A DNA stretch of 64,000 bases from Candidatus Woesearchaeota archaeon (GTDB taxonomy: Archaea; Nanobdellota; Nanobdellia; Woesearchaeales; SKGA01), in assembly GCA_046543005.1 (NCBI GenBank), contig JBKHAG010000001.1:1632-65631 (forward strand), given 5' to 3'. Shown piece after piece: positions 1-25,132 of the stretch (position 1 is the stretch's first letter; each line of letters starts with the position of its first letter). Made by a program: the position numbers and the translations under genes. The notes beneath the pieces were generated by a model. The model did not search any database. It was not told where the DNA came from and saw nothing but the letters and a program-made list of their open reading frames with translations.

Positions 1-901
1 TAACAACAAGAGGTAAAATCACAATAAGTAAAATTGGTAAAACGACCCCTAACATATTAAGTGTTGTAAGAGGTGATTTTAAACCATGAGCGTAATGAAG
101 CATTTTTTCATAGGTTTCATCAAGCATTACAGAAAGCGCTTTATCCAAACTTTCTCGACGTTTGTTTTCTGTTGATTCATACAATGATGCTTGAATTAAA
201 TGTATACTCTCAACAAATTCAGGATCATCATTTTTCCACCCATCTAAATAAGCAAATAAAGAATCTTTAATAGAATCATATGTTTGAGTTTCCACATCCC
301 ACACTATTTTTCTTAAATCAAGAGCAAGAGGAGGAGCAAGATGTTCTGAAGCAAAACGAATCGCCAATTCTAAATTTGAAGTGTGGCGCATATAAGTGAC
401 GATGTAAAAAACCGCTAAAACCATTTGGTTTGAAGCCTTCATTTTCCAAGTTTTTGACAAGGTAAAGGGCAAGTTTTGCAAAGGTACTAAAATTACTAAA
501 CTTAAAAGGACAAAAAATAAAACAAAAAATAGATTCCCTGTTTGTCCTAAAAGACTAGGAATAAGGAAAAAAATAATAATTGCTCCAAAGGTTATTGCTA
601 AAGGAATAAGTAAGGCAGCACTATAAACGCCTGTTGGTGTTGTAGAAAGATGACATGTTTTGATTGCTTGTTCAAGTTTTTTTTCTTTTTTTTTATCGGG
701 CGCGTAAGGTAAAACCTTTTCTGCGAATTGACAAATTTTTTCATACACATTTAATTTTTTTGGCAAGTATTGATTTTTAAATTCTGAATAAGCTCGAGAT
801 TGTACAGGGTTTTCTTGTTTAAAAGAATCACCACGTAATTCTCGCTCTAAACGTTGTTTAAAAAAGTCCGCCACATCCTTGTCTTCTTTTCCTGCAACCA
901 T
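1..901 (-). CDS. FlaJ/TadC-like (T2SS-F family) polytopic membrane platform protein, 3'-partial (runs off window start)
   Basis: Minus-strand ORF starts ATG 899-901 (MVAGKEDKDVADFF...), 6 bp downstream of the secretion ATPase stop; cytoplasmic N-domain followed by hydrophobic helices; classic ATPase+platform gene pair. Not in ORF track because no stop in window. Confidence 0.45.
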   Translation of the reverse strand, partial: MVAGKEDKDVADFFKQRLERELRGDSFKQENPVQSRAYSEFKNQYLPKKLNVYEKICQFAEKVLPYAPDKKKEKKLEQAIKTCHLSTTPTGVYSAALLIPLAITFGAIIIFFLIPSLLGQTGNLFFVLFFVLLSLVILVPLQNLPFTLSKTWKMKASNQMVLAVFYIVTYMRHTSNLELAIRFASEHLAPPLALDLRKIVWDVETQTYDSIKDSLFAYLDGWKNDDPEFVESIHLIQASLYESTENKRRESLDKALSVMLDETYEKMLHYAHGLKSPLTTLNMLGVVLPILLIVILPLVV

Positions 902-906
902 AGTAT

Positions 907-3174
907 CTATAATTCTTTTCGTCTAAGTTCTTTATCAAACCATTGAGTCCATTCAAATAAAATTTCTTTAGAATCTGCATGCCCTCTTTTTTTTACAACT
1001 CGTTCAACTACTTTGTGAAATGAATCATAAGCAAGCAATACAAAAGGCGCTTCAAGTAAAGAAGAATCTTTTCTTTTTTGACTTGTTGTAAAAATGTGCT
1101 CATTAATTTGGGAGCGCAATAAAATATTTTCCCACATCGCGTCCCAGTCACCTGCATATTCTTTAATTTTTGATGCGATTTCTTTTAAAATATCGCTTTC
1201 ACCATTAAGAAGTTCAGGCGTTGGTTCGAGCTGATCAGTAGTCGCATTATATTTTAACAAATCAACAAAGGCTCCTTCTGATAAAGGATCATCATCCCAG
1301 TCCTTTCGCACTTCAGTGATTTGTAATATTCTTCGTAGCTTGTGTAATCCATCTGCAGATTTAATGGGGTTTGCAATAATAATAATATCTGTTGCTTTAA
1401 AAGAAGTTTTAGGAACACCAATATCATTTACCAAACGGTCAAAAATTCCATAAGGAGTATCGCCATGAATTGTTCCTGCAACAACATTTGCAGCAGCTCC
1501 AACTCTCATCGCTTCATAAAGTGCTTTTGCTTCAGCACTTCTTACTTCACCAACGATTAGCGCACTATCTCCTAATCGAAGCGTACTTCGAATCCCATCA
1601 GCTGCCGAAAACTCATTACCCATTTTTGCAAGAGCGCTTGCGACTTTTAGGGGTTGAATATTAAATCCTAATTCTCGCATAGATTTTGTTGGAAGTTCTA
1701 AAGTATCTTCAATCGTAAGAATTCTGTGGCGACGCATAATAGATAAAATAAGCGCGGATAAAAAACTACTTTTCCCACTACTTCTTGTTCCACAAACAAG
1801 CATGGTTCGCGTCCCATCAATTAAAAACCATAATAATCCTGCAGCTAAACTATTAATCATTTTATAGGACATAAAAAGAGGCAATGTCCAAGGTTTATCT
1901 CGATGTCTTCGAAAAGAAAATGCAAGACCTGTAGGATTAAGCGGTCGCGTTATTGTTGATGTCCTCACACTTGCTCCAGGAAATTCTATTTCCGTATCTA
2001 AAATAGGATTTGCTTCGTCTAAAGGTCTTCCTGACATCATTCGTAATTTTGATGCCCAACTTTGCACATCAGCAACAGTTGGAAAAATATTTGTTTTACA
2101 ATCATCATATTCTGAGTGAACTATATACATAGGTAGTTCGCCTGCAGGACTATTTACAGAAATATCTTGTATTTTAGAATCTTCAAGCAATACTTCAACA
2201 AGTCCAAAACCAACTGTATAACGCACCAGTATTCGTGCAAGCTCATCAAGTTCTTTTTCAGGAATAGATAGCTTTCTATATGAAGCGAGCTCTTCTAACA
2301 AGTCTTTACCTACATTAAAAAAGATTTCTCTCATCCTCATAGGATCAGTAAATTCATCTTGTTCTGGAGTATGCTCACTTAAAATTTTTTTTGCTGTATC
2401 AAGTAAATCATAACGTTCTTCAGAAAGTCTAAATTCAGGAGGAACAATATGATATATATATTGTACAGAATCTGGTTGATCAAAAACAACAATTTCTGTC
2501 TCTCCAACCATATAATTATCAAGCTCATTGGCGTGCTTAGGATATGTAGCCATAAGTTTTGTAAACATAAAATCCGGTTTTATTATAGGGGAAAATAATT
2601 TTCTGTATACGGTTCGTTTTCCTATTTCGTATCCTTGAATATAAGGTCGAGCTAAAAGTAATAATTTTGTTTGAGAGAGTAATTGAATTATATATTCTAA
2701 AAGTTTAGCGTATACTTGATGGCTTTTTCGTAAATTTTCATCAGGCTCTTTGTCTATAAAAATGTGTTCTCGGCGTAATAATCGTTTAAGTAAAACAAAA
2801 CAACCAATAGGGTCTTTTTTGAGTTGAGAAAAAAGTTTTTGATGTAATTCATTATACCTTGTTGCAAGCTGTGAAGAAGCAATACTTTGGGTAAGTGCAG
2901 AATAGCTAAACAATTCTTTATTTCTAACTAACTTTTGATAAAGACGAGCAATCTCAGAAAGTAAAGAAACGTGATGAGTATCATATTCATAATCATGTTT
3001 TTGATTAAATATAATTCTTGTTGCTGTAGGGTTTTCTTGTAAAAGTTCTATGGCCTCAGCCATAGTTATAGGATCATCTTCAATAGAAGGAATGCGTCCT
3101 CTAAGCGTATAATCAACTTGTATAGTTACTGAGGAACCCTCTCTAAGCACATCATAAGAAAGTTGCTTTTCCAT
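907..3174 (-). CDS. Type II/IV secretion-system ATPase, FlaI/GspE/VirB11 family, with ~200-aa N-terminal extension (755 aa)
   Basis: Walker A-like VCGTRSSGKSSFLSAL; FlaI/VirB11 signature SALIVGEVRSAEAKALYEAMRVG (cf. IVGEIR..EA..LFQAM.TG); followed by platform-protein gene. Confidence 0.7.
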   Translation of the reverse strand: MEKQLSYDVLREGSSVTIQVDYTLRGRIPSIEDDPITMAEAIELLQENPTATRIIFNQKHDYEYDTHHVSLLSEIARLYQKLVRNKELFSYSALTQSIASSQLATRYNELHQKLFSQLKKDPIGCFVLLKRLLRREHIFIDKEPDENLRKSHQVYAKLLEYIIQLLSQTKLLLLARPYIQGYEIGKRTVYRKLFSPIIKPDFMFTKLMATYPKHANELDNYMVGETEIVVFDQPDSVQYIYHIVPPEFRLSEERYDLLDTAKKILSEHTPEQDEFTDPMRMREIFFNVGKDLLEELASYRKLSIPEKELDELARILVRYTVGFGLVEVLLEDSKIQDISVNSPAGELPMYIVHSEYDDCKTNIFPTVADVQSWASKLRMMSGRPLDEANPILDTEIEFPGASVRTSTITRPLNPTGLAFSFRRHRDKPWTLPLFMSYKMINSLAAGLLWFLIDGTRTMLVCGTRSSGKSSFLSALILSIMRRHRILTIEDTLELPTKSMRELGFNIQPLKVASALAKMGNEFSAADGIRSTLRLGDSALIVGEVRSAEAKALYEAMRVGAAANVVAGTIHGDTPYGIFDRLVNDIGVPKTSFKATDIIIIANPIKSADGLHKLRRILQITEVRKDWDDDPLSEGAFVDLLKYNATTDQLEPTPELLNGESDILKEIASKIKEYAGDWDAMWENILLRSQINEHIFTTSQKRKDSSLLEAPFVLLAYDSFHKVVERVVKKRGHADSKEILFEWTQWFDKELRRKEL

Positions 3175-3530
3175 AGATTTAGGAGTACGAGATGTTGATT
3201 TTTTTTCTTGTTCTTTAGAAGATTTAGCTCGCGCTGAACTAGTATCTAAAGAACCTGATTGTAGAGGTTCTATTTGTGCTCACCTTTTCACGTAATGTTT
3301 ACGTCTATTAAAGAGTAAGGAGTTTATAAATATTCCCTATAAATGGCGCTGTCCCAAAAGGTATGCATATGTATACTGCCTTGCGGCGAATTTTTTTAAA
3401 GCAAATAAGAAGAACTGTAAAGTTCGCACTTATAATCCTTGATTCAAAAATAAAATCTATACGACCCAAGGCGATAACAAAAACGCGCAGTATACTAATC
3501 TACACCATGTGGGACAAGCCCCTATAAATG

Positions 3531-3721
3531 GCCTTGTTTAAAATATTGTACATTTGTATACTGCGCGTCATTATCATTATCATTATTATTGTTATTATTA
3601 TTGTTATTATTATCGCCTTGAAACAAATAACGAGCAGGCAGTAAACAGCTAAGCACATAGCCAGATTACTGTTTCTGCTGTAATTGACAGTATACATAAA
3701 AACTCCTTTTTGAACAAGGCC
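3531..3721 (+). repeat. MITE-like intergenic repeat element, copy A (191 bp), with 14-bp terminal inverted repeats GGCCTTGTTTAAAA / TTTTTGAACAAGGCC and internal (ATT/ATC)n microsatellite
   Basis: Near-identical to 16336-16503 and 24912-25093; 5' GGCCTTGTTTAAAATATTGTACATTTGTATACTGCGCG ... AAACAAATAACGAGCAGGC.GTAAACAGCTAAGCACATAGCCAGATTACTGTTT.TG.TGTAATTGACAGTATACATAAAAACTCCTTTTTGAACAAGGCC 3'; inner IR TGTATACTG/CAGTATACA. Confidence 0.7.
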
Positions 3722-3765
3722 CTAGGAAGGTGATTTTTCCCTCATCTATACCTCGTCATAAAACA

Positions 3766-3773
3766 AAGTTTAA
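3766..3773 (+). promoter_or_regulatory. Putative archaeal TATA box (TTTAAATA) ~28-35 nt upstream of trpS ATG (leaderless-type promoter)
   Basis: AT-rich octamer at canonical archaeal distance from start codon. Confidence 0.25.
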
Positions 3774-3800
3774 ATAACGTCCTTTGTTACTTGCAAGCAC

Positions 3801-5048
3801 ATGAAAACAAACGAACACGTTTTAAAACAAAAAAACACGTCAAAAGTAAATCCTTATGAAGTTGATGGTAAAATAGATTATGATAGACTAATTGCTGAAT
3901 TTGGCATTAATCCACTCACACAAAAAGAAATTGATTTGATAGAACAAATTAGTAAAAAACCTGTTCATAAATATATTCGTAGAGGAATTTTTTTTTCTCA
4001 TCGAGATTTACCATGGTGTCTTAAGGAGTATGAAAAAGGCAACAAATTTTTTTTATATACTGGTCGAGGACCTTCAGGACCTATCCAGTTAGGGCATTTA
4101 GCAACATGGTTATTTGCTAAATGGCTTCAAGATGTTTTTGATGTTGAAATGTGGTTTCAATTTACAGACGAAGAAAAATTTTTGTTTAAAAAAGATTTGA
4201 GCTTAGAAGAAACTCAAAAATGGACATATGAAAATATGCTTGATGTTATCGCATTAGGTTTTGATCCTAAAAAAACTCATTTCCTTGTTGATACAAAACA
4301 TGCAGGCATCATGTATCCGCAAGCTATTAAAGTTGCTAAAAAAATAACTTTTTCAACAATTAAATCAGCATTTGGTTTTACAGAAAGTAACAATATAGGG
4401 AGTATTTTTTATACAGCGATGCAAACAGTACCAACTTTTTTACCTAACGTGTTACGAAATGAAAAAAGACCTTGTTTAATCCCTTTAGGTGTTGATCAGG
4501 ATCCTCATTTTAGAATTAGTCGAGATGTTATTGAAAAATTGGGCTTTGATAAACCTGCTATTATACATGCTAAAATGATGAGCCCTTTAGGAAGCGTTGA
4601 AGGTAAAATGAGTAGTTCTCATCCTAGTGCTGCAATATACACCACAGATGATGCTACAACAATTAAGAAAAAAATTAATAAATACGCATTTTCTGGAGGT
4701 CGAGCAACTCTTGAAGAACATCGTAAAAAAGGAGGAAATCCAGATATTGACGTTTCATTTCAGTGGTTGCGTTATTTTGAAGAAGACGATGAAGAGCTTG
4801 CAAAAATTGAAAAAAACTATCGCGAAGGTAAATTATTAAGTGGCGAACTTAAAAAACTCATCATTGAAAAAATTCAAGCGTTTCTTGCGGTTCATCAACA
4901 ACTTCGCGAACAAGCTAAAAATCGTGTTGATGAATTCATATTTACACCAGAAAAAATAAAGAATTCAAAAACAACTACCAAAGAAATATTTGCCTCTAGA
5001 AATGGAACGCATGATGAAAAAATGAACAAAATATTTGCAAAAAAGTAA
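3801..5048 (+). CDS. trpS: Tryptophanyl-tRNA synthetase, archaeal/eukaryal type
   Basis: Class I HIGH-region GPSGPIQLGHL; eukaryal/archaeal TrpRS motif PLGVDQDPHFRISRDV (cf. AIDQDPYFRMTRDV); KMSKS variant KMSSS. Confidence 0.8.
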   Translation: MKTNEHVLKQKNTSKVNPYEVDGKIDYDRLIAEFGINPLTQKEIDLIEQISKKPVHKYIRRGIFFSHRDLPWCLKEYEKGNKFFLYTGRGPSGPIQLGHLATWLFAKWLQDVFDVEMWFQFTDEEKFLFKKDLSLEETQKWTYENMLDVIALGFDPKKTHFLVDTKHAGIMYPQAIKVAKKITFSTIKSAFGFTESNNIGSIFYTAMQTVPTFLPNVLRNEKRPCLIPLGVDQDPHFRISRDVIEKLGFDKPAIIHAKMMSPLGSVEGKMSSSHPSAAIYTTDDATTIKKKINKYAFSGGRATLEEHRKKGGNPDIDVSFQWLRYFEEDDEELAKIEKNYREGKLLSGELKKLIIEKIQAFLAVHQQLREQAKNRVDEFIFTPEKIKNSKTTTKEIFASRNGTHDEKMNKIFAKK

Positions 5049-5097
5049 CAAAAACACTTAAATACGCTAAGACCATAACACAAAGTACAGGTGAGGC

Positions 5098-5565
5098 ATG
5101 GCTAACGATTTTCCAGCAACAATTGATCAAAAAGCACCCAGCGTACAAGAACACGTTTCTAAACATAGTTCTGAAGAATCTCTTTTAAGCAGTGTTCGTT
5201 CTCAACTCACAGATGTTTCTTCTCGACTTAAAATGCTTGAAGAACGCTATAATACGCTACGAAAAACAGTTCAACTCACAGAACAAAACGCTATTGAAAC
5301 AGAAAAGAATAACTTTAAAGAATTACAACTCGTCTCAGAAACAGTTTTGGATGTAAAAAAAACAGTTCAAGAAGTTAACAATAAAATTCAATTATTAGAA
5401 GGAGAAATTAGCAATTTTGTTCCTCGTACAGAATTTAAGACCATTGAACGATATGTTTCTTTTTGGGAACCTATGGATTTTGTTACGCGCAAAGAAGTTA
5501 ATGATTTTTTACGCAAGAAATTTAAAGAATTAGAAGAGAAAAAAAATGCTATTAAAAAAACATAA
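5098..5565 (+). CDS. Hypothetical coiled-coil protein (155 aa)
   Basis: Long ORF, heptad-like charged/hydrophobic periodicity; no recognisable motif. Confidence 0.4.
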   Translation: MANDFPATIDQKAPSVQEHVSKHSSEESLLSSVRSQLTDVSSRLKMLEERYNTLRKTVQLTEQNAIETEKNNFKELQLVSETVLDVKKTVQEVNNKIQLLEGEISNFVPRTEFKTIERYVSFWEPMDFVTRKEVNDFLRKKFKELEEKKNAIKKT

Positions 5566-5597
5566 ATCTTTTAATGTAAAAATAAAAAAGGCAAAAA

Positions 5598-6002
5598 TTA
5601 TTTTTTAGATTCTTGTAAATCTTGTGTTATTTGAGAAAGTTCAGATACATTTTTTGTAAACACAGGCAATACTTTTGCAAAAACTTTTTCCATCGCTTGA
5701 ATTTCTGCTCCAACATCTAAAATGTGTTTATCATATTCACCAACCTTTCCAACAACTGCTTTGTGGAGTTTATCAAACTCTTCTTTAACATCAATTATTT
5801 GCTGTTTCATTTCTGAAAGTTGTTTGTCAGCACTATTTTTCCATTCTAAAATAGAATTAATATCTTTAACGAGCTCATTCCATTTTTCATCAATTATTGC
5901 TTCAATAAGTTCTTCGTTTGAAACAGAATTATCTTGAGAAGGCATGAAAGGAGGTGGCATCTGATTAGGATTTTGATTTGGCATTGGTTGTTGTTGATTC
6001 AT
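5598..6002 (-). CDS. Hypothetical protein with Q/P/N-rich N-terminus and coiled-coil C-terminal region (134 aa)
   Basis: ORF convergent with 5098-5565; MNQQQPMPNQNPNQMPPPFMPSQ... then helical. Confidence 0.4.
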   Translation of the reverse strand: MNQQQPMPNQNPNQMPPPFMPSQDNSVSNEELIEAIIDEKWNELVKDINSILEWKNSADKQLSEMKQQIIDVKEEFDKLHKAVVGKVGEYDKHILDVGAEIQAMEKVFAKVLPVFTKNVSELSQITQDLQESKK

Positions 6003-6022
6003 ATAGTCTCACCTTAAAAAAA

Positions 6023-6742
6023 TTAATTATTAGCACTAGAAAGTAAAATTATTGTAAAAAACCCTATAAGGATAAAAAGTAACATCCCTAACACTTTTGG
6101 ATGAACAATAGTATTTATCACATTAGTTCCAAAATCGCCCGTATTTGTTGATGAAGTTGACGATGGTTGAGGCGTTGATTGATACGTTGGTTGCTGAGAT
6201 GTTGTATGTGTAGTTGATTGAGCAGATGATGATTGCGTTGAATTATCTGTATAGACTTCATGATTTTCTGATGCCCCACCAACTCCTTGCTGAGTAGTTG
6301 AAACTACCACACCTCCATTACTAGGATCTTGATTAGCTAATTTTTGACCAAAGGTCGAGGATAAAGAGATTAATAATATTAGTACAAATAAAACAACCAA
6401 TACCCACTTTACTGCAGCGTTTTCTTTTGAGAGTAAAAAATCTGAAAAAAAGTTTGCATTTTCTCCTACAAACATTTTTAAAATAATAAAGATAAAAAAG
6501 ATAAATACAATAAGAGCTGCAAACCAAGGTGCTAAAGTAGACAACAAAGTAGAAATATCTGTTGCTATCACGACAAATAATGAAACCACTAAAGAAATAA
6601 TCGCATATAAACCACGTTCTCCAGGTACATCTTTTAAGAATCGTATTAATCCTAATATTCCAAAAAAGATTGCAAACACTAAGAGGAACATAAATACAGG
6701 TCCTAAAAAGTTAACCAATGAAATATCCAAAAATGTTGCCAT
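6023..6742 (-). CDS. Polytopic membrane protein with Ser/Thr/Gln-rich (likely glycosylated, extracellular) C-terminal tail
   Basis: 4-5 hydrophobic helices; TQQGVGGASENHEVYTDNSTQSSSAQSTTHTTSQQPTYQSTPQPSSTSSTNTG low-complexity region. Confidence 0.45.
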   Translation of the reverse strand: MATFLDISLVNFLGPVFMFLLVFAIFFGILGLIRFLKDVPGERGLYAIISLVVSLFVVIATDISTLLSTLAPWFAALIVFIFFIFIILKMFVGENANFFSDFLLSKENAAVKWVLVVLFVLILLISLSSTFGQKLANQDPSNGGVVVSTTQQGVGGASENHEVYTDNSTQSSSAQSTTHTTSQQPTYQSTPQPSSTSSTNTGDFGTNVINTIVHPKVLGMLLFILIGFFTIILLSSANN

Positions 6743-6776
6743 TTGTATTATTCCTCCGTTAGTATAATGCTAAAAA

Positions 6777-7394
6777 TCAGTCTTGTTTTCCGTTAAGAAA
6801 ACTCTCCCAATTTTCTCGTCTAATTTTTGCTTGTTTTTCTTTTTGTTCTGGTGTTTTGCTCGTCCCTGTAATGAATTTCATAATAAGTCCAAAGACTAAT
6901 ATTGCAATAACAAGTGCAATTACATCACTATTAAGTAAGCCCCACATCCATCCAGGAAGGTTCCACCAACCCATTGATACTATAAAAATCACAACAACTA
7001 ATGCTCCTGAAAGAACAGTAAATACTTTACCAGGTCCTTTTGACCCGTCTGCTCGTTTTCCAGTCCAAAGACCAAGTGTTAAAAGCACCATTACGATTGC
7101 AACTAAAAGCAAACTTACTTGAGGTAAAGCATTATTTAATGCAGTTACAACAGTCACTGAAGTTCCTGGAATAACAATACCATAATAATGTGAAAAAATC
7201 ACACTCATTGCAACTACTAAAGAAACAACTGCAGAATATTTTTTAACTTGATCATCTGTTGTTCCTAAAATTTTTGTTTTTTCAAGTACCGCAAACACGA
7301 TTGTAAAAATAAGTATAAAGGGTAAAATTACATCAAAAATTCCCCAATTATTAAGTGATTGAATAAGTCCTCCAAAGCCGCCATAGTATGCCAT
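6777..7394 (-). CDS. Membrane protein, tandem paralog A (205 aa)
   Basis: N-terminus MAYYGGFGGL..IFDVILPFILIFTIVFAVLEKTKILG parallels neighbour MAATVLGGTL..VYDIILPFLLVFTLMFAFLEKTKVLG; multiple TM helices. Confidence 0.5.
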   Translation of the reverse strand: MAYYGGFGGLIQSLNNWGIFDVILPFILIFTIVFAVLEKTKILGTTDDQVKKYSAVVSLVVAMSVIFSHYYGIVIPGTSVTVVTALNNALPQVSLLLVAIVMVLLTLGLWTGKRADGSKGPGKVFTVLSGALVVVIFIVSMGWWNLPGWMWGLLNSDVIALVIAILVFGLIMKFITGTSKTPEQKEKQAKIRRENWESFLNGKQD

Positions 7395-7405
7395 CGTTTA
7401 TCTCC

Positions 7406-7978
7406 TCAAGATTTTTTTTCTGTGCTGGGTTTTTTTGATGAGGTCACCCAGGCCATAAAACCTACAAAAACAAGTATCATTAAAACAGTAGCTATTGCAG
7501 CGCTATTCCAATGAGTTGTAAAGAAGCCATAAATTAGAGTTAACCAACCTAAAGCATTAAATAAAATTAAAATAATTCCTAAAAGTGAAAAAATCCAAAA
7601 ACCCGTTTTCCAGCCTTTCCCCATTGAATCAAGAGAAAATTCTTCTTTACCAGTATGAGTTATTCCCACTGCAAGCATAAAACAAGTCCCTGTTATAATA
7701 ATAATCATAACATTTGCAATAACCTCACTTAATATTCGAACGAGTTGGCTTGATGCGATAACAAAAAACGCCGTTGTAAAAGCAACAATTGCATTTAGAT
7801 TTTTTCGCGTATAAGCAGTTTCTTTTCCGTCAGTTACAATAAGCTCTACGCCTAAGACTTTTGTTTTTTCTAAAAACGCAAACATGAGCGTAAAAACTAA
7901 GAGAAAGGGTAAGATTATGTCATAAACACCTAGAGTTGTTAAAAAATCTAGAGTTCCGCCAAGTACTGTTGCTGCCAC
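7406..7978 (-). CDS. Membrane protein, tandem paralog B (190 aa)
   Basis: See paralog A; shared D.ILPF.L.FT..FA.LEKTK.LG motif. Confidence 0.5.
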   Translation of the reverse strand: MAATVLGGTLDFLTTLGVYDIILPFLLVFTLMFAFLEKTKVLGVELIVTDGKETAYTRKNLNAIVAFTTAFFVIASSQLVRILSEVIANVMIIIITGTCFMLAVGITHTGKEEFSLDSMGKGWKTGFWIFSLLGIILILFNALGWLTLIYGFFTTHWNSAAIATVLMILVFVGFMAWVTSSKKPSTEKKS

Positions 7979-8161
7979 CTCAAGTAGTTTTGGGCAAAAG
8001 AGACTATATAAAGGTTTCTATTTATAAAAAAATATGAACAAAGAAGATGCGAAGTAGTTAAGTAAGGTAACGCACTACAACCTCTATAAAAAGGTCCAAC
8101 ATTATTTTTCGTAATAAAAAAGTCCGAGAATTTATAAATAAGGAGAAACTACCCTACCCAT

Positions 8162-8776
8162 ATGGCACAAGACCCAAAAAACAGATTTTCACACATTAAA
8201 GAAGAGTTTATTCAAATGCAAAAAGCGTACGAAGAAGACGATAAACTTCGTGAAGAAATAATAATCTTATCAAGAGATATTATAAAACCATCTAAACAAG
8301 CAATTTACAGCGTACACAGAGAACAATTTGATCAAGCTCAACAACAATTAGAACATGCTCGAGAGCAAATTCACAAAGCAAAAAAACGAATCGAACAATC
8401 ATCTTTTGACTATATCGGTTCTTTTCGTGCGGGCCTTGAAGAATATGTTGAAGCGATGCTTACCTTTTCCTTTATGAAAACTGGTCAAATCCTTTCTAAA
8501 AAAGACTGTGAACTCGAATTTGAACTTCCTTCTGAAACCTATATAGCAGCAATTAGTGATTTTACTGGCGAACTTGTTCGCGCAGGAGTACGAGCAGCAA
8601 TTGCTAAAAACAAGAAACTTATCACACAAATTCATCAAACTATTGAAGAATTACACGGACTTACCATGGGCTTTAATGCGCGTTCAGGAGATCTTCGAAA
8701 AAAAATCGACACCATAAAATATAATTTAGCAAAAATTGAAAACATCGTTTATGATATTACTATAAAACAAAATTAA
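8162..8776 (+). CDS. Translin-family protein
   Basis: C-terminal region ISDFTGELVRAGV...GFNARSGDLRKKIDTIKYNLAKIENIVYDITIK aligns by eye with the translin C-terminus (..DLTGELMR.. / GFRLLNLKNDSLRKRYDGLKYDVKKVEEVVYDLSIR). Confidence 0.6.
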   Translation: MAQDPKNRFSHIKEEFIQMQKAYEEDDKLREEIIILSRDIIKPSKQAIYSVHREQFDQAQQQLEHAREQIHKAKKRIEQSSFDYIGSFRAGLEEYVEAMLTFSFMKTGQILSKKDCELEFELPSETYIAAISDFTGELVRAGVRAAIAKNKKLITQIHQTIEELHGLTMGFNARSGDLRKKIDTIKYNLAKIENIVYDITIKQN

Positions 8777-8841
8777 ATAAAATAAATATATAATCACAAC
8801 TCGATAATGTTTTGTAAAAAAACATTAAAGCAATATAATTA

Positions 8842-10551
8842 ATGGAGAAAAATATGTTACGAACACACACATGCGCAGAATTACGAGCAACAGACGTAGA
8901 CCAAACAGTAACCCTTGCGGGTTGGGTTCATAGTATTCGAACTCACGGAGCACTAACCTTTATTGATATACGAGATCGTTATGGACGAACTCAACTCACT
9001 ATTGAAAATCTTAATCAAGAAATTGGTAAAGAGTTTGTTATTAGTGCAACAGGAATTGTGGTAAAAAAAGATCAACCAAATAAGGAACTCGCAACTGGAG
9101 AAATCGAAGTAAAAGTTGAAAAGCTTACTATTTTAAACACTTCAAAGGCTCTCCCCATAGATGAACACGCAACTGACGAAACAAAATTACAATATCGTTA
9201 TATTGATATCAGAAATAATAATGTTTTACAGCACTTAGCTTTTAGAAGTAAAGTTTCACACGCAACAAGAGAGTTTTTTGAACAAAATGAATTCTTAGAA
9301 ATTGAAACTCCTTATTTGATGAAATCAACACCGGAAGGTGCTCGAGATTATGTTGTTCCATCAAGAGTTAATCCAAACGAATTCTATGCACTTCCGCAAA
9401 GTCCTCAACTCTATAAACAGATTTTAATGATTGCTGGAGTGGATAAATATTATCAACTTGCACGAGCGCTTCGTGATGAAGATTTGCGTGCAGACAGACA
9501 ACCAGAACATACTCAAATAGATTTTGAAATGAGTTTTGTGCACCAATCTGACGTTCAAGAATTTACTGAAAAATTACTTAAACACATATTTAAAAAAACA
9601 ATGAATATAGAACTTGATAATTTTCCAGTCTTTAGTTATGATGAAGCTATGAGCCGGTTTGGCAGCGATAAACCAGATATTCGATTTGGACTGGAACTTT
9701 CCAATATTACTACAATTGCAAAAACTACAGAATTTAAAGTTTTTAATTCTGCAGACATGGTCAATGCCATTTTTATCGAAGAAAAATTATCTAGAAAACA
9801 AATTGACAAGTACACTGATTTTGTTAAAATCTATAAAGCAAAAGGTTTGGCCTACGCACAAGTTATAAATAATAAACTTGACGCAGGTATTAGTAAATTC
9901 TTAGACTCAACGACTCAAGAAAAAATTATTAAAGCAGTTGGATGCTCAGATAAAGAAGGTACCTTATTATTTGTTGCAGATAGTGAAAAAATATCTCAAA
10001 GCGCTCTTGGTTTTTTGCGAAAAAAACTTTCTGAAGATTTTAATCTTACAAACTCTGATGACTTCAAATTTTGTTGGGTTAATGATTTCCCTTTATTTTC
10101 TTATAATGAAGACGAACAACGATGGGAGCCAGAACACCACATGTTTAGTATGCCTAAAGAAGAATTCATTGATGACTTTGAACAACGACCTCAAGAAACA
10201 AAAGGCGACTTATGGGATTTGGTTCTTAACGGTTGGGAAATGGCATCAGGTTCTATTCGAGTAAGCAATCCTAAAATTCAAGAACGTATTATGAATTTTG
10301 TTGGCTTTGATAAAGAGGAAGCTCAAAAAAGATTTGGCTTTTTGTTACACGCATACGAATATGGGGGTCCTATTCATGGCGGAATGGGAATCGGTCTTGA
10401 TAGACTTGTTACGCTTATGCTAAAACTCTCAGATATTCGAGAAGTTATCGCGTTTCCAAAAAATAAACATGCGCAATGTCCAATGGATGGTTCGCCAAGT
10501 CGCATTTCACAAGAACAACTTGATGAACTTAACATCAGTTTAAAAAAATAA
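8842..10551 (+). CDS. aspS: Aspartyl-tRNA synthetase, bacterial type (with insertion/GAD-like domain, 569 aa)
   Basis: N-term OB fold MLRTHTCAELRATDVDQTVTLAGWVHSIRTHGALTFIDIRDRYG; motif 2 region QSPQLYKQILMIAGVDKYYQLARALRDEDLRADRQPEHTQIDFEMSF is the bacterial AspRS signature; class II motif 3 GGMGIGLDRLV. Confidence 0.85.
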   Translation: MEKNMLRTHTCAELRATDVDQTVTLAGWVHSIRTHGALTFIDIRDRYGRTQLTIENLNQEIGKEFVISATGIVVKKDQPNKELATGEIEVKVEKLTILNTSKALPIDEHATDETKLQYRYIDIRNNNVLQHLAFRSKVSHATREFFEQNEFLEIETPYLMKSTPEGARDYVVPSRVNPNEFYALPQSPQLYKQILMIAGVDKYYQLARALRDEDLRADRQPEHTQIDFEMSFVHQSDVQEFTEKLLKHIFKKTMNIELDNFPVFSYDEAMSRFGSDKPDIRFGLELSNITTIAKTTEFKVFNSADMVNAIFIEEKLSRKQIDKYTDFVKIYKAKGLAYAQVINNKLDAGISKFLDSTTQEKIIKAVGCSDKEGTLLFVADSEKISQSALGFLRKKLSEDFNLTNSDDFKFCWVNDFPLFSYNEDEQRWEPEHHMFSMPKEEFIDDFEQRPQETKGDLWDLVLNGWEMASGSIRVSNPKIQERIMNFVGFDKEEAQKRFGFLLHAYEYGGPIHGGMGIGLDRLVTLMLKLSDIREVIAFPKNKHAQCPMDGSPSRISQEQLDELNISLKK

Positions 10552-10596
10552 AACTATGCACACAAAAATAAACAAAAAATCCTTAGAGGTATAACG

Positions 10597-11892
10597 ATGA
10601 AAGAATTTCAAACTATAAAAGAAGCGATGAGTCAAGGAAAGGGTCGTGTAAATATTCGCGGCTGGGTCTATAGAGAAAGAGGTAATAAAAATATTCAGTT
10701 TATCGTTCTTCGTGACGCGCAACACATTATTCAATGTGTTGTTGAAAAACTAGTTGTTGGAGAGGATATGTTTGAGCAAGCAAGTAAAGTTCAAATTGAA
10801 ACTGCTATGAGTATTACCGGAGACATTGTTGCCGACAAGCGAGCACCATCAGGTTTTGAAATTAAAGTAAAAGAATTAGAAATTATTGGTGACTGCGACA
10901 CATTTCCTATTGCAAAAGATAATTCACCAGAATTTCTTCTTGATATTAGACATCTTGCTTTACGTACAAGAAAACAAGCAGCAATACTTCGTATTCGAAG
11001 TTCATATGTTCAAGCGCGCGAACAATTTTTCAAAGAAAAAGATTTTTTTAGATTTGATGCGCCAATTTTACAACCTAATCAAAGCGAAGGCGGAAGCACA
11101 TTATTTAGTGTGAATTATTATAAAGAAAAAACCTTCCTTTCACAAAGTTGGCAATTATATGCTGAAGCAGCAGTGAGTGCTCTTGAGCGAATTTACAATT
11201 TTGGTCCTACGTTTCGAGCTGAAAAAAGCAAAACTTCTCGTCATTTAAGCGAGTTTTGGATGGCCGAAATGGAAGCTGCTTGGTTTGATCTTAACGATAT
11301 TATTTCTTTTGCATTTGAAGAATTAAAATTTTGTATTCAACAAACTGTTAAAGAACGCAAAGAAGATTTTATTCTTCTTGGACAAGACCCTCAAGCGCTT
11401 CTTGAGATGTGCGATAAAGAATGGCCTGTTATGAAATACCGTGAAGCTCTTAGTTTAATTAAAGAAAAAGAAAATATGGATATTCCTTTTGGTAAAGATT
11501 TACGTACTGAAGAAGAAAAAGCATTGATGAATCATTTTGATACACCAGTTGCTGTAACGCATTATCCTGTAAAAGCAATGGCTTTTTACAAACCTCGAGA
11601 TCCGCAGTTTCCTGATGAAGCTCTTTGTGTAGATATTCTTTCACCAACAGGCGTGGAAATTACTGGCGGAAGTCAACGGTCTATGGATATTGAGGATATG
11701 AAAAAACGCCTTCAAGCAGAAGATGAAGATCCTGCAAATTACCAATGGTATTTTGATACAAGAATATATGGTGGTGTTCCACACAGTGGTTATGGTATTG
11801 GAACTGAACGAGTTATTCAATGGATCACAGGTACAGAAAACATCAAAGATTGTATTCCATTTCCTAGAACTATGCTTCGTTGGAGTCCATAA
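10597..11892 (+). CDS. asnS: Asparaginyl-tRNA synthetase
   Basis: FRAEKSKTSRHLSEFWMAEMEAAWF (AsnRS-type EFWM.E.E.A), GGSQRS...YGGVPHSGYGIGTERV class II motif 3; 431 aa. Confidence 0.75.
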   Translation: MKEFQTIKEAMSQGKGRVNIRGWVYRERGNKNIQFIVLRDAQHIIQCVVEKLVVGEDMFEQASKVQIETAMSITGDIVADKRAPSGFEIKVKELEIIGDCDTFPIAKDNSPEFLLDIRHLALRTRKQAAILRIRSSYVQAREQFFKEKDFFRFDAPILQPNQSEGGSTLFSVNYYKEKTFLSQSWQLYAEAAVSALERIYNFGPTFRAEKSKTSRHLSEFWMAEMEAAWFDLNDIISFAFEELKFCIQQTVKERKEDFILLGQDPQALLEMCDKEWPVMKYREALSLIKEKENMDIPFGKDLRTEEEKALMNHFDTPVAVTHYPVKAMAFYKPRDPQFPDEALCVDILSPTGVEITGGSQRSMDIEDMKKRLQAEDEDPANYQWYFDTRIYGGVPHSGYGIGTERVIQWITGTENIKDCIPFPRTMLRWSP

Positions 11893-11947
11893 ATACACTG
11901 CAGAGTGTTGTGTATTTGACCTGAAAAGTTGTTTTTATTTTAACTTT

Positions 11948-13165
11948 TTATTTTTCTAATATTGCTTCAATTTCGTGGATGACTCGTTCTACAAAAGCAG
12001 TTTTTTTCTCACCATCTGCAGGTTCAAGTGCTAAAGAATTAAGTAATTGATGTATTTTTTCTTGTTCTTTGACAAGTGTTAAGGTATCGTTTTCTTTACT
12101 ATATTGAGAAACAATTGTTTCTTCAATAGAAGATGCTCCTTGCGCAACAGCACTTTCTTGTTCTTCAAATTGATGTGCTCGCAAGGCATAGGTGTTTTTT
12201 AACACCATGTACGCACCAGCAGAATATAATTCTTGAATTGCTTGTTGCATATCAATATCTGAAGGTGTTCCTTGTAGTAAAGTTCCTTGTATTCTAAGCA
12301 AAACAAGCGCCCCTTCAAACACATTTTGAGTAACGAGATCAAATAATTCTTGAGTTACTTGTTGAGGTGTTTTATCTTGAGCATTAACAGTAAAAACAAT
12401 CACCGGTTGAGAGGGTATTGGCACATGAGAAAATTTTTGCTTTTGAGTATCATCATAGAAAACAAAAGAACCTGTTTTTAATTTTTCAAGTTCTGAAAAA
12501 TTGTTAGGAAATGTAGGTCCTGGAAACACTACTGCTTTATGAGAAGTATCAGAATAGGACTTTTTAATATGTACATGACCGCCCGCATAGTAATCACATC
12601 CTGAAGGTAAATATGCAATATCTTGGCTTTGCATAGTTGCGAGTTCAGGAGGTTGAAGTTGAGTGATTGCGCCATGAAATAAAAAAATAGTTGGTGCGTT
12701 TTCAGGTAATTGTAAAGGCGCTAGTTGTTTATAAAAAACGCTATCTAGTTGTCCTTTCTTACCACTAATACCTGTAATATGGGCATTTGTTTTAGCATCA
12801 ATAGTCCACTTTAAATGCAATTTTTCGTTGTCATCAATATCTCCTTGCATAACATTTATGAGTAAACCCGTAAGAGCTAAAATATCAATCATTGTTTTTC
12901 CGCGAGCACTCGCGTCATGACTTCCTGCTATTGCATAAATAGGAATATTATTTTTTTGTAATTGGCTTAATTGTTCAACAACAAATTCTAGTGCTTCAAG
13001 TCGAGGAAGTGCAGTATTAAAAAGATCTCCTGCAATGAGCACGAAATCAACAGATTCTTTAATGGCATAATCAATAACGTAAGAAAAACTTTGCAAACCT
13101 AAATCTGCTAATCGAGGGTCTTTAAATCCATCAATGTGGGAATCTGCAAAGTGCACGAATTTCAT
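11948..13165 (-). CDS. mre11: Mre11/SbcD-like calcineurin-type metallophosphoesterase (DNA repair nuclease); start corrected to internal ATG
   Basis: MKFVHFADSHIDGF...FVLIAGDLFNTALP...GSHDAS...GGHVHI phosphoesterase motifs I-V; ORF-track N-terminal 92 codons are Cys/Phe-rich junk overlapping the divergent promoter; ATG at 13163-13165. Confidence 0.7.
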   Translation of the reverse strand: MKFVHFADSHIDGFKDPRLADLGLQSFSYVIDYAIKESVDFVLIAGDLFNTALPRLEALEFVVEQLSQLQKNNIPIYAIAGSHDASARGKTMIDILALTGLLINVMQGDIDDNEKLHLKWTIDAKTNAHITGISGKKGQLDSVFYKQLAPLQLPENAPTIFLFHGAITQLQPPELATMQSQDIAYLPSGCDYYAGGHVHIKKSYSDTSHKAVVFPGPTFPNNFSELEKLKTGSFVFYDDTQKQKFSHVPIPSQPVIVFTVNAQDKTPQQVTQELFDLVTQNVFEGALVLLRIQGTLLQGTPSDIDMQQAIQELYSAGAYMVLKNTYALRAHQFEEQESAVAQGASSIEETIVSQYSKENDTLTLVKEQEKIHQLLNSLALEPADGEKKTAFVERVIHEIEAILEK

Positions 13166-13271
13166 AAAAAAGAGAAAGTAAACTCTGTTTATTAAAGCTT
13201 GCGAAAAATAAAAAGCACACAAAAAACTTGTAAAGCAAAAGATTTTTAAAAACAAACAAAGTAAATACAAA

Positions 13272-13883
13272 ATGAAACATAAAACTAAAATTTTTGTACT
13301 CCACGGCGGATGCACACATTCAAGTAGAAAAAAATATGAAACGTTTCTAAAATCGATTACTATTTCATTACATAAAAGAAAACATTGGCGAAAAGAATAT
13401 CTTACTAAAAAATTAAAAAAATATGAAATAATTGCTCCCACGATGCCTCTAAAAGAAAACGCTAAGTATAAAGATTGGAAAATAATTTTTGAAAAATATA
13501 TGCAACAAATGGATGAAGATATTATTTTAATAGGCGAATCATTAGGAGGTATTTTTTTAGCAAAATATTTATCTGAAAATAAGATTAAAAAAAATATTTT
13601 AGGGACGTATCTTGTCGCACCACCTTTTGATAATGAGTTATCTAATGAAGAATTAGTTGGTGGTTTTAATTTACCAAAAGATATTTCACTATTACAAAAA
13701 CAAAATAAACACTTACACTTATTTTTTTCAAAAGACGATCCTGTTGTTAATATTGAACAAGCAAAAAAATACCAACAACAACTTGAAGAAAAAACAATTC
13801 ATATTTTTGAAAGTAAAAACGGACATTTTAGAGTTGAAAAATTTCCTGAACTTATAAAATTAATAAAAAAAGAGTGTCGCTAA
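13272..13883 (+). CDS. Alpha/beta-fold serine hydrolase (esterase-like), 203 aa
   Basis: IFVLHGG near N-terminus; nucleophile elbow GESLGG (G-x-S-x-G); putative His in ...NGHF. Confidence 0.5.
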   Translation: MKHKTKIFVLHGGCTHSSRKKYETFLKSITISLHKRKHWRKEYLTKKLKKYEIIAPTMPLKENAKYKDWKIIFEKYMQQMDEDIILIGESLGGIFLAKYLSENKIKKNILGTYLVAPPFDNELSNEELVGGFNLPKDISLLQKQNKHLHLFFSKDDPVVNIEQAKKYQQQLEEKTIHIFESKNGHFRVEKFPELIKLIKKECR

Positions 13884-14885
13884 TTATTGTGTTAGTACAT
13901 AAACGCATCGAGTCAAGGACTTATGAATATAAATTTCATGACGTTGTATGATTTTCCAATGCGTCCCTTTAAGAAGGTCCTCAAGGCTTAGTTCTGCTAA
14001 CAGCCCCACCACGACACGATTAGTTGTATTTTGAGCGTGTTTAAAAAATTTCTTGTAAAAAAAATTTTTGTCAAGAGAAAGAGAACTATTTTGTCCATAG
14101 GGCAAATCAGTCACAATGCAAGGCAATCTTTTTTTGATATCAAAAAAATCTTCTTTTTTTACAACAATATCAACACCGAAATAGTTTGCATTTTTTGTTG
14201 TAGCAAGAACCATATCTTGGCGTATATCGCTTCCTTTTGCAATAAAGCCTTGCAGTGCTGCTTCAATGAGTAATCCTCCTGCACCACAAAAAGGATCAAT
14301 AATACTATTACTTTGCGCTAATAAATTCATTGCTTTGGCTATTTTTGGATGTATAGCAATAGGCTTACTTACTGCTTGTAAGTGTGCTCTTCGCTGACGA
14401 GGAGAATCTTCATTTGTTGCTATAAGTTCTAAAATGTATAACATCTCTTTTGTTTGTAAAACATAAAACGTTTTTTTAGGTTTTGATAAATTTACTTTAT
14501 AGGATAGTTCTTTTGCAACATATTTTTGTAAATCTCGTGTTAAAAAAGAAATTGATTGAGTGTCTCCCTTTTTTTGTTTTACACAATAATTATCTTGAGC
14601 ATGAGCGTTTAACGTTTTTACACAAGAGCGAAATAATCGTTCTTTTTTTTGAGCATCAAAAGATGCACCGTCAAATAAAATAGCCAGTGAAAAAGAATCC
14701 AAAACATTGCAAGATTCTTTTGCAAAACCAAATAAAGAAATGTCTTTTTCAAAAATAACTGTGGGCGTTAAAAAAATTCCTTGAGCAATAGAAAATAATT
14801 TTTCTTTAAAAAAAGATTCTAATTCTGCTTGTGCTAAACCCACATGTTCTTTTGAAGAAAAAATAATTCCTGCCATTATAATCAC
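13884..14885 (-). CDS. SAM-dependent RNA (guanine-N2/adenine-N6 family) methyltransferase, probably THUMP-type tRNA m2G methyltransferase (Trm14/RlmL-like)
   Basis: SAM motif I IDPFCGAGGLLIEAAL, motif IV VTDLPYG (D/N-PPY variant); N-terminal ~150 aa domain preceding the MTase. Confidence 0.5.
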   Translation of the reverse strand: MIIMAGIIFSSKEHVGLAQAELESFFKEKLFSIAQGIFLTPTVIFEKDISLFGFAKESCNVLDSFSLAILFDGASFDAQKKERLFRSCVKTLNAHAQDNYCVKQKKGDTQSISFLTRDLQKYVAKELSYKVNLSKPKKTFYVLQTKEMLYILELIATNEDSPRQRRAHLQAVSKPIAIHPKIAKAMNLLAQSNSIIDPFCGAGGLLIEAALQGFIAKGSDIRQDMVLATTKNANYFGVDIVVKKEDFFDIKKRLPCIVTDLPYGQNSSLSLDKNFFYKKFFKHAQNTTNRVVVGLLAELSLEDLLKGTHWKIIQRHEIYIHKSLTRCVYVLTQ

Positions 14886-14894
14886 AATAACTTT

Positions 14895-16250
14895 TTACGT
14901 ATCCCAGCTTTGAATAATATGTTTTGCTAAAAGCAATCCTCGAGCAAGTGTTGAGCTATTTGGATTAAATTCTAAGGAACGAATAATTGTTTGGCATTCA
15001 TTACCAAAAGAGTCATTATTTTTTTGCTGTGCTAAAAAAGTTATAAGACCTTGTATGAGCATTCCTGTTTCTTGAGTACCAACGCCTGTTTGAAGAGGTT
15101 GACCTAATTCATCATAAGAATGTACAAGTTGATCTGTAGAAGGTAAAGAGAGGTCTTTAGCTAAAGAATTTTGTTCTTGAGATTCAAACTCTAAAAAATC
15201 CTCTTCTGAAAATAAGTCTAAGGAATTAGATTGAAGAGTACCTGATTCTTCTGATTTTTGAGAATCAGAAGCTACCTCTTCAAGAGTTGTTTGTTGTTCT
15301 TGAACATATTCAGGTTCTAAGACATCAATACAATACAAATTTTTATGTTTATCTGCAACAAACTCCATATGAAAAGAATCTTTATCTAAAAAGTGTGAAA
15401 CTTTTTTTGTTAATCTAGCAACTTCTAAAAGAAGGGGATCGGGAGCGCTTTGAGCTGAACTCATAGTCATATAATGTTTAGGCATTGCCATGTTTGATTC
15501 CATGTCAAATACAACAACTTTTTTTTGTTTTACCACACTTCGAGAAGTTATTTTTAAAAAATCAATTGATGTTGTAAACACATCTCGTTGTACGGTATTG
15601 GTGTAATCTAAAAAACCCGTATAACTTTTTATAGTAATTGTATTTGCTTCTTCATCAAAATCAGATTCCAAACAAGTCGTTACCAAAGGAAGTCTTGTTA
15701 AAACTACTGCCATAGAGAATTCTTTAATTTCTTTTTTTTGACGATAATCAATAGAGCTTGGACAAAATGCGCTTAAATAAACGCTCTTTAGTCGCTTTAA
15801 AAAGCTTTCAAAATTATTTTTTGTTATGAGGCGTCCCCGACAAATACCATCGGCATCTTCATAGCTTGTACTTCTTCGAAGAGTAAGAATATGGCGTTCA
15901 GATTTTGTTAAATCATTAAGATTATCTGTATCAAGACAAACAAGTTCATAGCATTCACGAAGTTGTTGAAGAACGCTTTGGGGAAAATCAGCATGTTCAA
16001 AAACACTTGCTAATTCTGCAAATGCGCTTACTTGTTCTTCTTTTCGCAACGTACCTTCTAAAAAAGGTCGAATACGTTCACCTAAAGCATTGTAAGATAC
16101 AAATTCAAAAAAAACATCGCTTGTTATAACCAGTGAAAAAGGAACATTAAAATCTTTTTCTAAATGCGAAAGAATAGTTGCTTTAACACCTACAACGAAA
16201 TCATCTTCTTGTAGTGCTGATTTTAAAGGTAGATATGTTCTCATTAACAA
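14895..16250 (-). CDS. PEP-utilising-enzyme N-terminal ATP-grasp (PPDK_N/PEP synthase-like) domain protein with acidic C-terminal extension
   Basis: VGVKATILSHL..NVPFSLVITSDVFFEF (cf. GGKxAxLxxM..G.PVP.GF.ITT.AY..F); RRSTSYEDADGICRGR (cf. VRSSA.EDL...FAGQ); ...LYCIDVLEPEY (cf. L.ILQ.RP). Confidence 0.5.
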   Translation of the reverse strand: MLMRTYLPLKSALQEDDFVVGVKATILSHLEKDFNVPFSLVITSDVFFEFVSYNALGERIRPFLEGTLRKEEQVSAFAELASVFEHADFPQSVLQQLRECYELVCLDTDNLNDLTKSERHILTLRRSTSYEDADGICRGRLITKNNFESFLKRLKSVYLSAFCPSSIDYRQKKEIKEFSMAVVLTRLPLVTTCLESDFDEEANTITIKSYTGFLDYTNTVQRDVFTTSIDFLKITSRSVVKQKKVVVFDMESNMAMPKHYMTMSSAQSAPDPLLLEVARLTKKVSHFLDKDSFHMEFVADKHKNLYCIDVLEPEYVQEQQTTLEEVASDSQKSEESGTLQSNSLDLFSEEDFLEFESQEQNSLAKDLSLPSTDQLVHSYDELGQPLQTGVGTQETGMLIQGLITFLAQQKNNDSFGNECQTIIRSLEFNPNSSTLARGLLLAKHIIQSWDT

Positions 16251-16335: not shown

Positions 16336-16503
16336 GGCTTTGTTTAAAATACTGTACATCTGCATACTGCGCGTTATTTTGATTATTATTATTATCGGTT
16401 TGGGACAAATAACGAGCAGGCGCTAAACAGGTAAGCACATAGCCAGATTACTGTTTGTGTTGTAATTGACAATATACATAAAAACTCCTTTTTGAACAAG
16501 GCC
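16336..16503 (+). repeat. MITE-like intergenic repeat element, copy B (168 bp)
   Basis: GGCTTTGTTTAAAATACTGTACATCTGCATACTGCGCG...ACAAATAACGAGCAGGCGCTAAACAGGTAAGCACATAGCCAGATTACTGTTTGTGTTGTAATTGACAATATACATAAAAACTCCTTTTTGAACAAGGCC; shorter ATT tract than copies A/C. Confidence 0.7.
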
Positions 16504-16558
16504 AACAAAAAGCAACATTTATAAACGATTATTTGTTAAATGCGCGTGAGGTGAGTGG

Positions 16559-24301: not shown

Positions 24302-24400
24302 TGGAAAAATAAGAAACCCCGAGAAATTTATAAATGTTTTTAAAAGACGAGGCCGTAAAACAACAAATACAGAGAAAAATAAGAAAAAATAGAATAAAAA

Positions 24401-25093: not shown

Positions 25094-25132
25094 TAAAAAC
25101 CAATATATTTATAAAGGTATTTTTGTTGAATT

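Follow-up and report, generated by a model that had tools for sequence, protein, structure and literature searches.

Why should copies of one short, non-coding repeat stand immediately upstream of genes that are otherwise unrelated? The question is raised by a 64-kb stretch of DNA (the window), which is part of the 70.4-kb contig CAYPEB010000002.1 of assembly GCA_964409805.1. In NCBI, the proteins of this contig are named as those of a 'Candidatus Nanoarchaeia archaeon' metagenome-assembled genome (MAG). The window has a GC content of ~32% and is ~92% coding, with short intergenic spacers. A preliminary description of the repeat took it for a miniature inverted-repeat transposable element (MITE) with terminal inverted repeats (TIRs) and target-site duplications, and considered a mobile promoter or 5'-untranslated-region cassette and a small structured RNA as alternatives. 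The duplications, together with orthologous sites that are empty in a relative, bear out the MITE reading, and it is highly probable that the repeats are a family of MITEs whose targeting is fixed by the distance to the TATA box of an existing promoter.

Seven copies were found in total, five of them in the window (A, B, C, D and G), one on the same contig just beyond it (E) and one in the relative (F). The preliminary description had listed three copies and a fragment. Its three copies are all present on the plus strand, namely A at 3530-3721 (192 bp; it starts at 3530, not 3531), B at 16336-16503 (168 bp) and C at 24912-25093 (182 bp), while the count for the window rises to five. What was taken for a fragment (3474-3521) proved to be the terminal part of D (3345-3521, minus strand, 177 bp), a fourth and complete element with a divergent interior and a perfect CTATAAAT duplication. 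It sits in the 627-nt spacer upstream of trpS, inverted relative to A-C and head-to-head with A; both of its ends match A-C over ~40 nt, and the microsatellite found in A-C is absent from its differing interior. A blastn match to the interior of D revealed G (59098-59271, minus strand, 174 bp), a decayed copy with the termini GACCTTATGTAAAATA... and ...TTTGAAACAGAGC and an interior ~71% identical to that of D. Copy E (L002 53-244, minus strand) shares 94% identity with A, although its 3' terminus is of the D type, and copy F (L009 14282-14434), from the syntenic relative, is ~71-75% identical to A-C. The claim that A-C are about 90% identical outside the microsatellite holds in so far as long invariant blocks lie there; with the microsatellite gaps included, pairwise identity is 79-87%.

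The relative, the closest one available, is represented by the Logan assemblies of SRR28369933 and SRR28093312. Its loci are collinear with the window, and amino-acid identity is 69% for PfkB, 90% for the pilus-type ATPase and 88% for TopoVI-B. Proteins of the window also occur in GCA_048618355.1 and in the Logan assemblies SRR11308339, SRR21542053 and SRR21542054, all of which derive from the same strain (at least 99.9% identity) and among which no insertion polymorphism was seen. Between the window and the public NCBI contig there are 2 differences in 15,048 positions (window 1-15048 against L002), and between the window and the contigs of GCA_048618355.1 there are 2-5 per 6-13 kb, which indicates minor strain or consensus differences.

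Transposition is recorded in the flanks of the elements. When these are read in an 8-bp register, D, E and F are each bounded by the same octamer on both sides (8/8), being ATTTATAG, TTGCAATC and CTCTTTTA, respectively, and a match of this quality is expected by chance at ~4e-5, as calculated from base composition. The possible duplication that had been pointed out beside C holds at 7/8, with TAAAAACA at 24904-24911 on the 5' side and TAAAAACC at 25094-25101 on the 3' side. The flanks of A (CTATAAAT and CTAGGAAG) agree at 5/8, those of G (TTTTATTA and ATGTAATC) at 4/8 and those of B (CAAAGTTA and AACAAAAA) at 3/8. On the window, the duplication of D has its promoter-side copy, CTATAAAT, at 3337-3344 and its second copy at 3522-3529, the latter being also the 5' flank of A.

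The relative provides the unoccupied counterparts of these sites. Four of the sites occupied in the contig (A/D, B, C and E) are empty there, and F is present only in the relative. At the B site there is a 139-nt spacer without an element; at the C site a single AAAAAACC is followed by AACATA TTTATAAA GG; the A/D site reads ...CTTTTTGG GGAATA TTTATAAA and the E site ...TTTAGAAC ATAAAG CTTATAAA. Insertion duplicates 8 bp of the target, and the elements have been active since the split from the closest available relative. The preliminary description had reasoned that copies in one orientation only, without target-site duplications, or the lack of any more copies would speak against a MITE; what was found is copies on both strands, duplications and additional copies. 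We propose that a DDE-type transposase encoded elsewhere would bind the ends, cut the target with a stagger of 8 bp and mobilise the elements in trans.

That the copies lie just upstream of genes, as had been noticed, reflects a fixed spacing of 14 nt to a TATA box. In B, C, D, E, F and G, the 3' end of the element is exactly 14 nt upstream of a TATA-type box, which starts at +15, and the 14 nt consist of the 8-bp duplication and a 6-nt purine- or A-rich stretch at the position of the archaeal transcription factor B (TFB) recognition element (BRE). In element orientation, the octamer, the 6-nt spacer and the box are AACAAAAA, GCAACA and TTTATAAA for B; TAAAAACC, AATATA and TTTATAAA for C; ATTTATAG, GGAATA and TTTATAAA for D; TTGCAATC, ATAAAG and CTTATAAA for E; CTCTTTTA, AAAACA and TTTATAAA for F; and ATGTAATC, CTAATC and TTTAAAAA for G. 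A box was accepted with at most one mismatch to TTTATAAA, and the null was taken from 4004 intergenic positions outside the elements. Under this null a box occurs at that offset at 0.8% of oriented sites, or 1.6% when either side is allowed, from which the chance of finding six of seven elements at the exact offset is calculated as ~1e-10.

The boxes belong to genes of very different kinds. D stands 14 nt from the TTTATAAA box at 3323-3330 (minus strand) of a T2SSE-type ATPase gene, B from that at 16518-16525 (plus strand) of the PfkB kinase gene, C from that at 25108-25115 (plus strand) of a leaderless ABC ATPase gene (ATG at 25139), and G from a TATA-like box, TTTTTAAA, at 59076-59083 (minus strand) of a gene for a 1172-amino-acid protein. 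The box of G lies 30 nt before the ATG at 59053, a start that is also used by the public gene call, and the box of E lies 34 nt before tRNA-Phe(GAA). In the window TTTATAAA occurs 13 times, 10 of them intergenic, and before genes it is found 31-33 nt ahead of start codons, as is the TATA box of leaderless archaeal mRNAs; these boxes are real promoters. Three of the 10 intergenic consensus boxes are occupied by an element and a fourth has a putative scar beside it (see below). The distance from element end to start codon, previously put at 75-95 nt, was measured as 80 nt for A, 56 nt for B and 46 nt for C.

Since the duplicated octamers have no common consensus, it is the distance to the box, and not the sequence that is cut, which defines the site. 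Furthermore, the empty sites already have the box and the 6-mer (for D, the box together with its BRE GGAATA; for B, the box at L009 6243-6250), which therefore were not brought by the element. The notion that the TATA box is part of the element is rejected by the same empty sites. Target choice is non-random, and insertion takes place upstream of an existing promoter whose core is left intact.

The 3' end faces the box in six of the seven elements. The seventh, A, is oriented the opposite way, its 5' end facing the box at 3323-3330 with D in between. One promoter can be hit twice, as insertion regenerates the target, and it is target regeneration followed by a second insertion that gave rise to the head-to-head pair of D and A, exactly 8 nt apart. 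In the simplest history, A would have inserted first, its promoter-side duplication would have restored the target, and D would then have used the identical octamer CTATAAAT, with the far-side copy of A's duplication having since decayed to 5/8. The orientation bias, with six elements 3'-proximal and one 5'-proximal, would reflect either asymmetric capture of the target or selection.

Could the elements have inserted essentially at random, the 14-nt spacing being produced later by purifying selection in a compact genome? In favour of this, ~92% of the genome is coding, the spacers are short, and insertions into genes or between TATA box and start site would be lethal for genes such as trpS, tRNA-Phe or Sec61-beta. 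Selection of this kind, however, would set a minimum distance and would not make the distance identical at all six of the six sites, in two lineages. On the far side of B and C, between divergent promoters, there is apparently unused spacer of 58-118 nt; E sits in a spacer between a gene end and a promoter where other positions were available; and one site was used twice, by D and A. It is unlikely that selection alone is the source of the exact spacing, and we regard random insertion as improbable.

The same geometry might be expected of a mobile regulatory cassette that brings a promoter or an upstream activating site, in which case the spacing would be functional. The fixed 14 nt, the identical end that faces the box in six of seven copies and the position upstream of unrelated genes, including that of tRNA-Phe, would all suit such a cassette, and bacterial MITEs such as Correia elements do carry promoters (PMC10969869). 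Here, however, neither the TATA box nor the 6-nt BRE region is part of the element; both are found beyond the target duplication and are nearly identical in the relative's empty sites, where the orthologous genes evidently manage without the element. Nor does the element contain a conserved outward-facing TATA-like box. With the promoter pre-existing in this way, the cassette put forward in the preliminary description finds no support, and we consider it slightly more improbable again than random insertion.

The anatomy of the element is that of a transposon substrate with two kinds of interior. The copies are 153-192 bp long, and the outer inverted repeat claimed for the family, GGCCTTGTTYAAAA / TTTTTGAACAAGGCC, is present in A-C (in A at 3530-3543 and 3707-3721), with the variants GGGCTTGTCCCA / TGGGACAGCGCC in D and E and degenerate ends in G. 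The TIRs are 14-16 bp long and start GGCnnTG (GGCCTTG, GGCGCTG or GGCTTTG), the pattern of the element end being GGCCTTGTTYAAAATAC...GTATAC. The inner inverted repeat TGTATACTG / CAGTATACA was likewise found as claimed (in A at 3555-3563 and 3688-3696), and a subterminal second inverted repeat, GTATAC(TG), occurs in every copy. Four occurrences of the motif GTATACTGCGCG were counted, where chance would give 0.02. In an alignment of the seven elements, A, B, C, E and F (type 1) and D and G (type 2) have common ends and differ in their interiors, type 1 having an internal hairpin (3634-3680 in A) and a trinucleotide microsatellite.

The microsatellite is an (ATT)n tract of 18-42 nt interrupted by ATC, GTT and ATA. 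Its length differs from copy to copy, as had been observed, the (ATT/ATC/GTT)n tract measuring 42 nt in A (3569-3610), 18 nt in B (16375-16392) and 32 nt in C (24951-24982), and in the second MAG of this strain the tract of C is unchanged. Since F has (GTT)3 in its place and type 2 lacks it, the microsatellite grew inside the element after the lineages split, or after insertion. Immediately behind it, all copies have the block TATCGCCTTG(A/G) (3611-3622 in A), which repeats the terminal GCCTTG motif and, to judge from this sequence, may be a third, subterminal binding site for the transposase. No copy has coding capacity: the short open reading frames (ORFs) vary in frame and content between copies. 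A protein-coding reading is rejected, since the microsatellite puts the copies out of frame with one another and no ORF is conserved.

The inverted ends could also close an RNA of ~170 nt that acts in cis or in trans, which would make the copies a dispersed family of small-RNA genes or structured RNAs. The plus strand of C folds at -42.7 kcal/mol (z = -3.7), D reaches z = -5.0, one-sided changes in the type-1 hairpin keep G-U pairs on the plus strand only, and the copies are co-oriented with the downstream genes. The fold is, however, dominated by the TIRs, and the minus strand does equally well at -43.3 kcal/mol. Covariation in the five aligned type-1 copies did not exceed that of shuffled alignments (170/500). 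The element matched no Rfam family: in Rfam 15 the sole match at gathering level in the window was archaeal RNase P, and permissive matches over 3300-3800 reached at most 20 bits against thresholds of 40-95 bits. There is no conserved promoter in or before the element, the TTTAAAATA motif of the 5' TIR occurring only in A, B and F. A small-RNA gene with TTTAAAATA as internal promoter and a T5 terminator, CTCCTTTTTG, was rejected, neither signal being conserved in C, D, E and G. Types 1 and 2 have only their ends in common, as expected of a transposon substrate and not of an RNA, and the target duplications and empty sites mean insertion by transposition. The structured RNA is therefore unsupported and the least probable of the explanations considered.

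Against a MITE family with promoter-directed targeting stand several points. The sample is small, with seven elements from two lineages and six independent sites. The duplication is weak in A (5/8), and none is recognisable in B and G; given this, B is probably the oldest type-1 copy, and G, which is decayed, has none left. The orientation rule is not absolute, with a two-sided binomial probability of 0.125 when A is included, and the exact spacing could in principle have been sharpened by selection. The type-1 hairpin (helix 5) is paired in five of five copies, with one compensatory swap of G-C to C-G, and might therefore have a role at the transcript level. A transposase with matching ends was not found in 88 kb of the genome and ~60 kb of the relative, and the footprint described below is read from a single site.

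That footprint lies where F would be expected in the window. In the relative, F is inserted between two copies of TAAAAGAG in front of the Sec61-beta gene. At exactly this place the window has TAAAAGAC GAGGCCG TAAAACAA (24341-24363), starting 6 nt after the TATA box of the Sec61-beta gene at 24327-24334. The element both begins and ends with GGCC, a rare tetranucleotide (34 sites in the 64 kb). Of these sites, the one here alone is intergenic, stands beside a TATA box and is not part of an element end. GAGGCCG is a probable scar of excision or of a microhomology deletion, and loss of an element by cut-and-paste could leave a small GGCC-containing footprint of this type.

How widely the family is distributed was examined at several levels. 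A profile made from the seven elements (nhmmer) detected no further copies in the window, the rest of the 70.4-kb contig, 17.5 kb of contig 15 of the same MAG, ~60 kb of the close relative or 22 kb of the third-closest relative. A 20-mer core searched against 185,579 GTDB species representatives gave one chance match only, in Undibacterium, and a degenerate 5' pattern and a 24-mer 3' pattern, both conserved in the two species, had no match in JGI metagenomes or IMG/VR. As these exact-pattern scans were negative, the family is known only from the present species and one relative. Its density is 6 copies in 88 kb, or ~70 per Mb. In the k-mer-based Logan assemblies of the same strain, contigs begin or break off within the ends of B and C, as is expected of a repeat. 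The ends of Logan contigs inside G were considered as a sign of more G-like repeats, which was rejected: the two ends have no k-1 overlap and represent a break in coverage. On contig 15 (CAYPEB010000015.1), a 334-nt intergenic gap was considered as an insertion and rejected as an assembly artefact, a scaffold run of N with duplicated flanks; the scaffold gap at L013 10921-11021 comprises 100 N with duplicated flanks of ~60 nt and splits a gene.

As to the enzyme, the IS1595/Merlin elements typically generate 8-bp duplications and have GG termini (PMC8101967). The present family resembles the ISPna2 group of IS1595 and the eukaryotic Merlin transposons in duplicating 8 bp and in beginning GG(C). 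In ISOar1, the member of the ISPna2 group that was inspected directly, the ends are GGCTCAATTCG, beginning GGC, and the 8-bp duplication is TATATCTT; similarity to the TIRs of the present family stops at GGC, although comparison with a single member is a weak test. We take the end consensus of this group in ISfinder to be GGCnnTG, which the ends here (GGCCTTG, GGCGCTG and GGCTTTG) would match; the inspected member begins GGCTCAA. Duplications of 8 bp are also made by ISL3, IS6, IS66, IS256 and ISH6, and we know of no TATA-directed targeting described for IS1595. No transposase gene lies in the window or in any other locus retrieved; in particular, there is no IS1595-type transposase near any copy and no Pfam match to DDE_Tnp_IS1595 or Zn_Tnp_IS1595 among the genes, and an autonomous element with the same TIRs was not found in the ~150 kb covered. 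Since no transposase was found, both mobilisation in trans and the family of the enzyme are things we can only infer. An IS1595-like enzyme fits as the mobiliser and is unproven as such, and since other 8-bp families are possible and the cognate transposase is missing, we do not file the family as an IS1595 derivative.

As MITEs, the elements are in familiar company. They have in common with the Correia elements of Neisseria, SM1-SM4 of Sulfolobus and other archaeal MITEs that they are short, non-coding and multicopy, have TIRs and target-site duplications, lie in intergenic regions, often just upstream of genes, and form subfamilies with common ends and differing interiors. A high MITE density, 105 per Mb, has been reported for a Woesearchaeal genome (PMC11602168), and the ~70 per Mb found here is within that range. 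Correia elements duplicate TA and carry promoters and sites for integration host factor (PMC10969869), in contrast to the present family, in which the duplication is 8 bp of arbitrary sequence and a promoter is lacking. In a literature search that was not exhaustive, we found no description of a prokaryotic MITE or transposon whose distance from a core promoter element is fixed.

Targeting of this kind is known from eukaryotic retrotransposons. Ty3 of yeast inserts at the start sites of RNA polymerase III (Pol III) genes via TFIIIB, and TRE5-A of Dictyostelium inserts ~48 bp upstream of tRNA genes. The likeness consists in a fixed distance from the core promoter in a compact genome, with sites that are reused and promoters that stay intact, and one of the targets here is also a tRNA gene promoter. 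Ty3 and TRE5-A, however, are tethered to Pol III factors and integrate by integrase or target-primed reverse transcription, whereas the present elements derive from a DNA transposon, in an archaeon with a single RNA polymerase, and protein-coding genes are among their targets too. The likeness is functional, and membership is excluded as the elements are not retroelements. Within bacteria, IS1397 and ISKpn1 insert in the palindromes of repetitive extragenic palindromic sequences and bacterial interspersed mosaic elements (REP/BIME), and IS30 prefers sequences like its own inverted repeats. In these cases too a short motif repeated throughout the genome is recognised and genes are so avoided; the difference is that the motif here is the functional BRE/TATA and that insertion is offset from it, and membership is excluded by mechanism.

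For the promoter-directed MITEs described here, the ruler could be a transposase that reads BRE/TATA directly, or one that captures the bent promoter when it is bound by TATA-binding protein (TBP) and TFB. In its most specific form, the transposase would capture TBP/TFB on BRE/TATA and cut 8 bp at the upstream edge of TFB, which would make it the archaeal DNA-transposon counterpart of the tethering of Ty3 to TFIIIB. Tethering to TBP/TFB is at this stage a tentative proposal, which we hold to be rather doubtful. Tethered capture, if true, would account for the exactness of the 14-nt ruler as well as for the bias in orientation and for the fact that one promoter was used more than once. By whichever route, the element would gain a place to insert safely although 92% of the genome is coding.

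Some features close to the copies deserve mention. The archaeal RNase P RNA gene lies at 24403-24761 on the minus strand, scoring 84.2 bits against a gathering threshold of 84, and has its own TATA box at 24787-24794; the 85-amino-acid ORF at 24470-24727 (plus strand) that overlaps it is spurious. The gene downstream of E, tRNA-Phe(GAA), is at L014 90-164, just beyond the start of the contig. Its orthologue in the relative (L010 12127-12250) has an intron-like insertion of ~50 nt in the region of the T arm and was not called by ARAGORN. The leader of the T2SSE-type ATPase gene is long, with ~150-250 nt between the TATA box at 3323-3330 and the start codon. A GGTGAGCACA motif is conserved in this leader (window 3251-3270, minus strand; L010 7428-7450), as is a hairpin, GAACC-N9-GGTTC, whose stem is kept while its loop changes between the two species. 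The start of this gene is called 35 codons further downstream in the relative, giving 720 instead of 755 amino acids. A long co-directional run of genes occupies 30395-59053 and 60320-63883 (minus strand) and encodes giant proteins of 1803, 1422, 1172, 1187 and 1073 amino acids, without Pfam matches except for weak Big_13 immunoglobulin-like domains. The run, which adjoins the T2SSE-type ATPase region, is probably a lineage-specific surface or pilus-associated cluster.

MITEs are common, and another family from the DPANN archaea would by itself not be news. The present family is new but of a known kind, and its new aspect is the fixed distance that a cut-and-paste-type element keeps from the archaeal core promoter, an unusual trait among prokaryotic transposons. 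In this way a streamlined, 92%-coding genome can go on harbouring ~70 copies per Mb while its genes are spared, and in uncultivated Nanoarchaeia the elements serve as natural marks of functional promoters. Should the ruler prove to be protein-tethered, the family would be a prokaryotic example of integration guided by transcription factors, and possibly a tool for promoter-proximal insertion.

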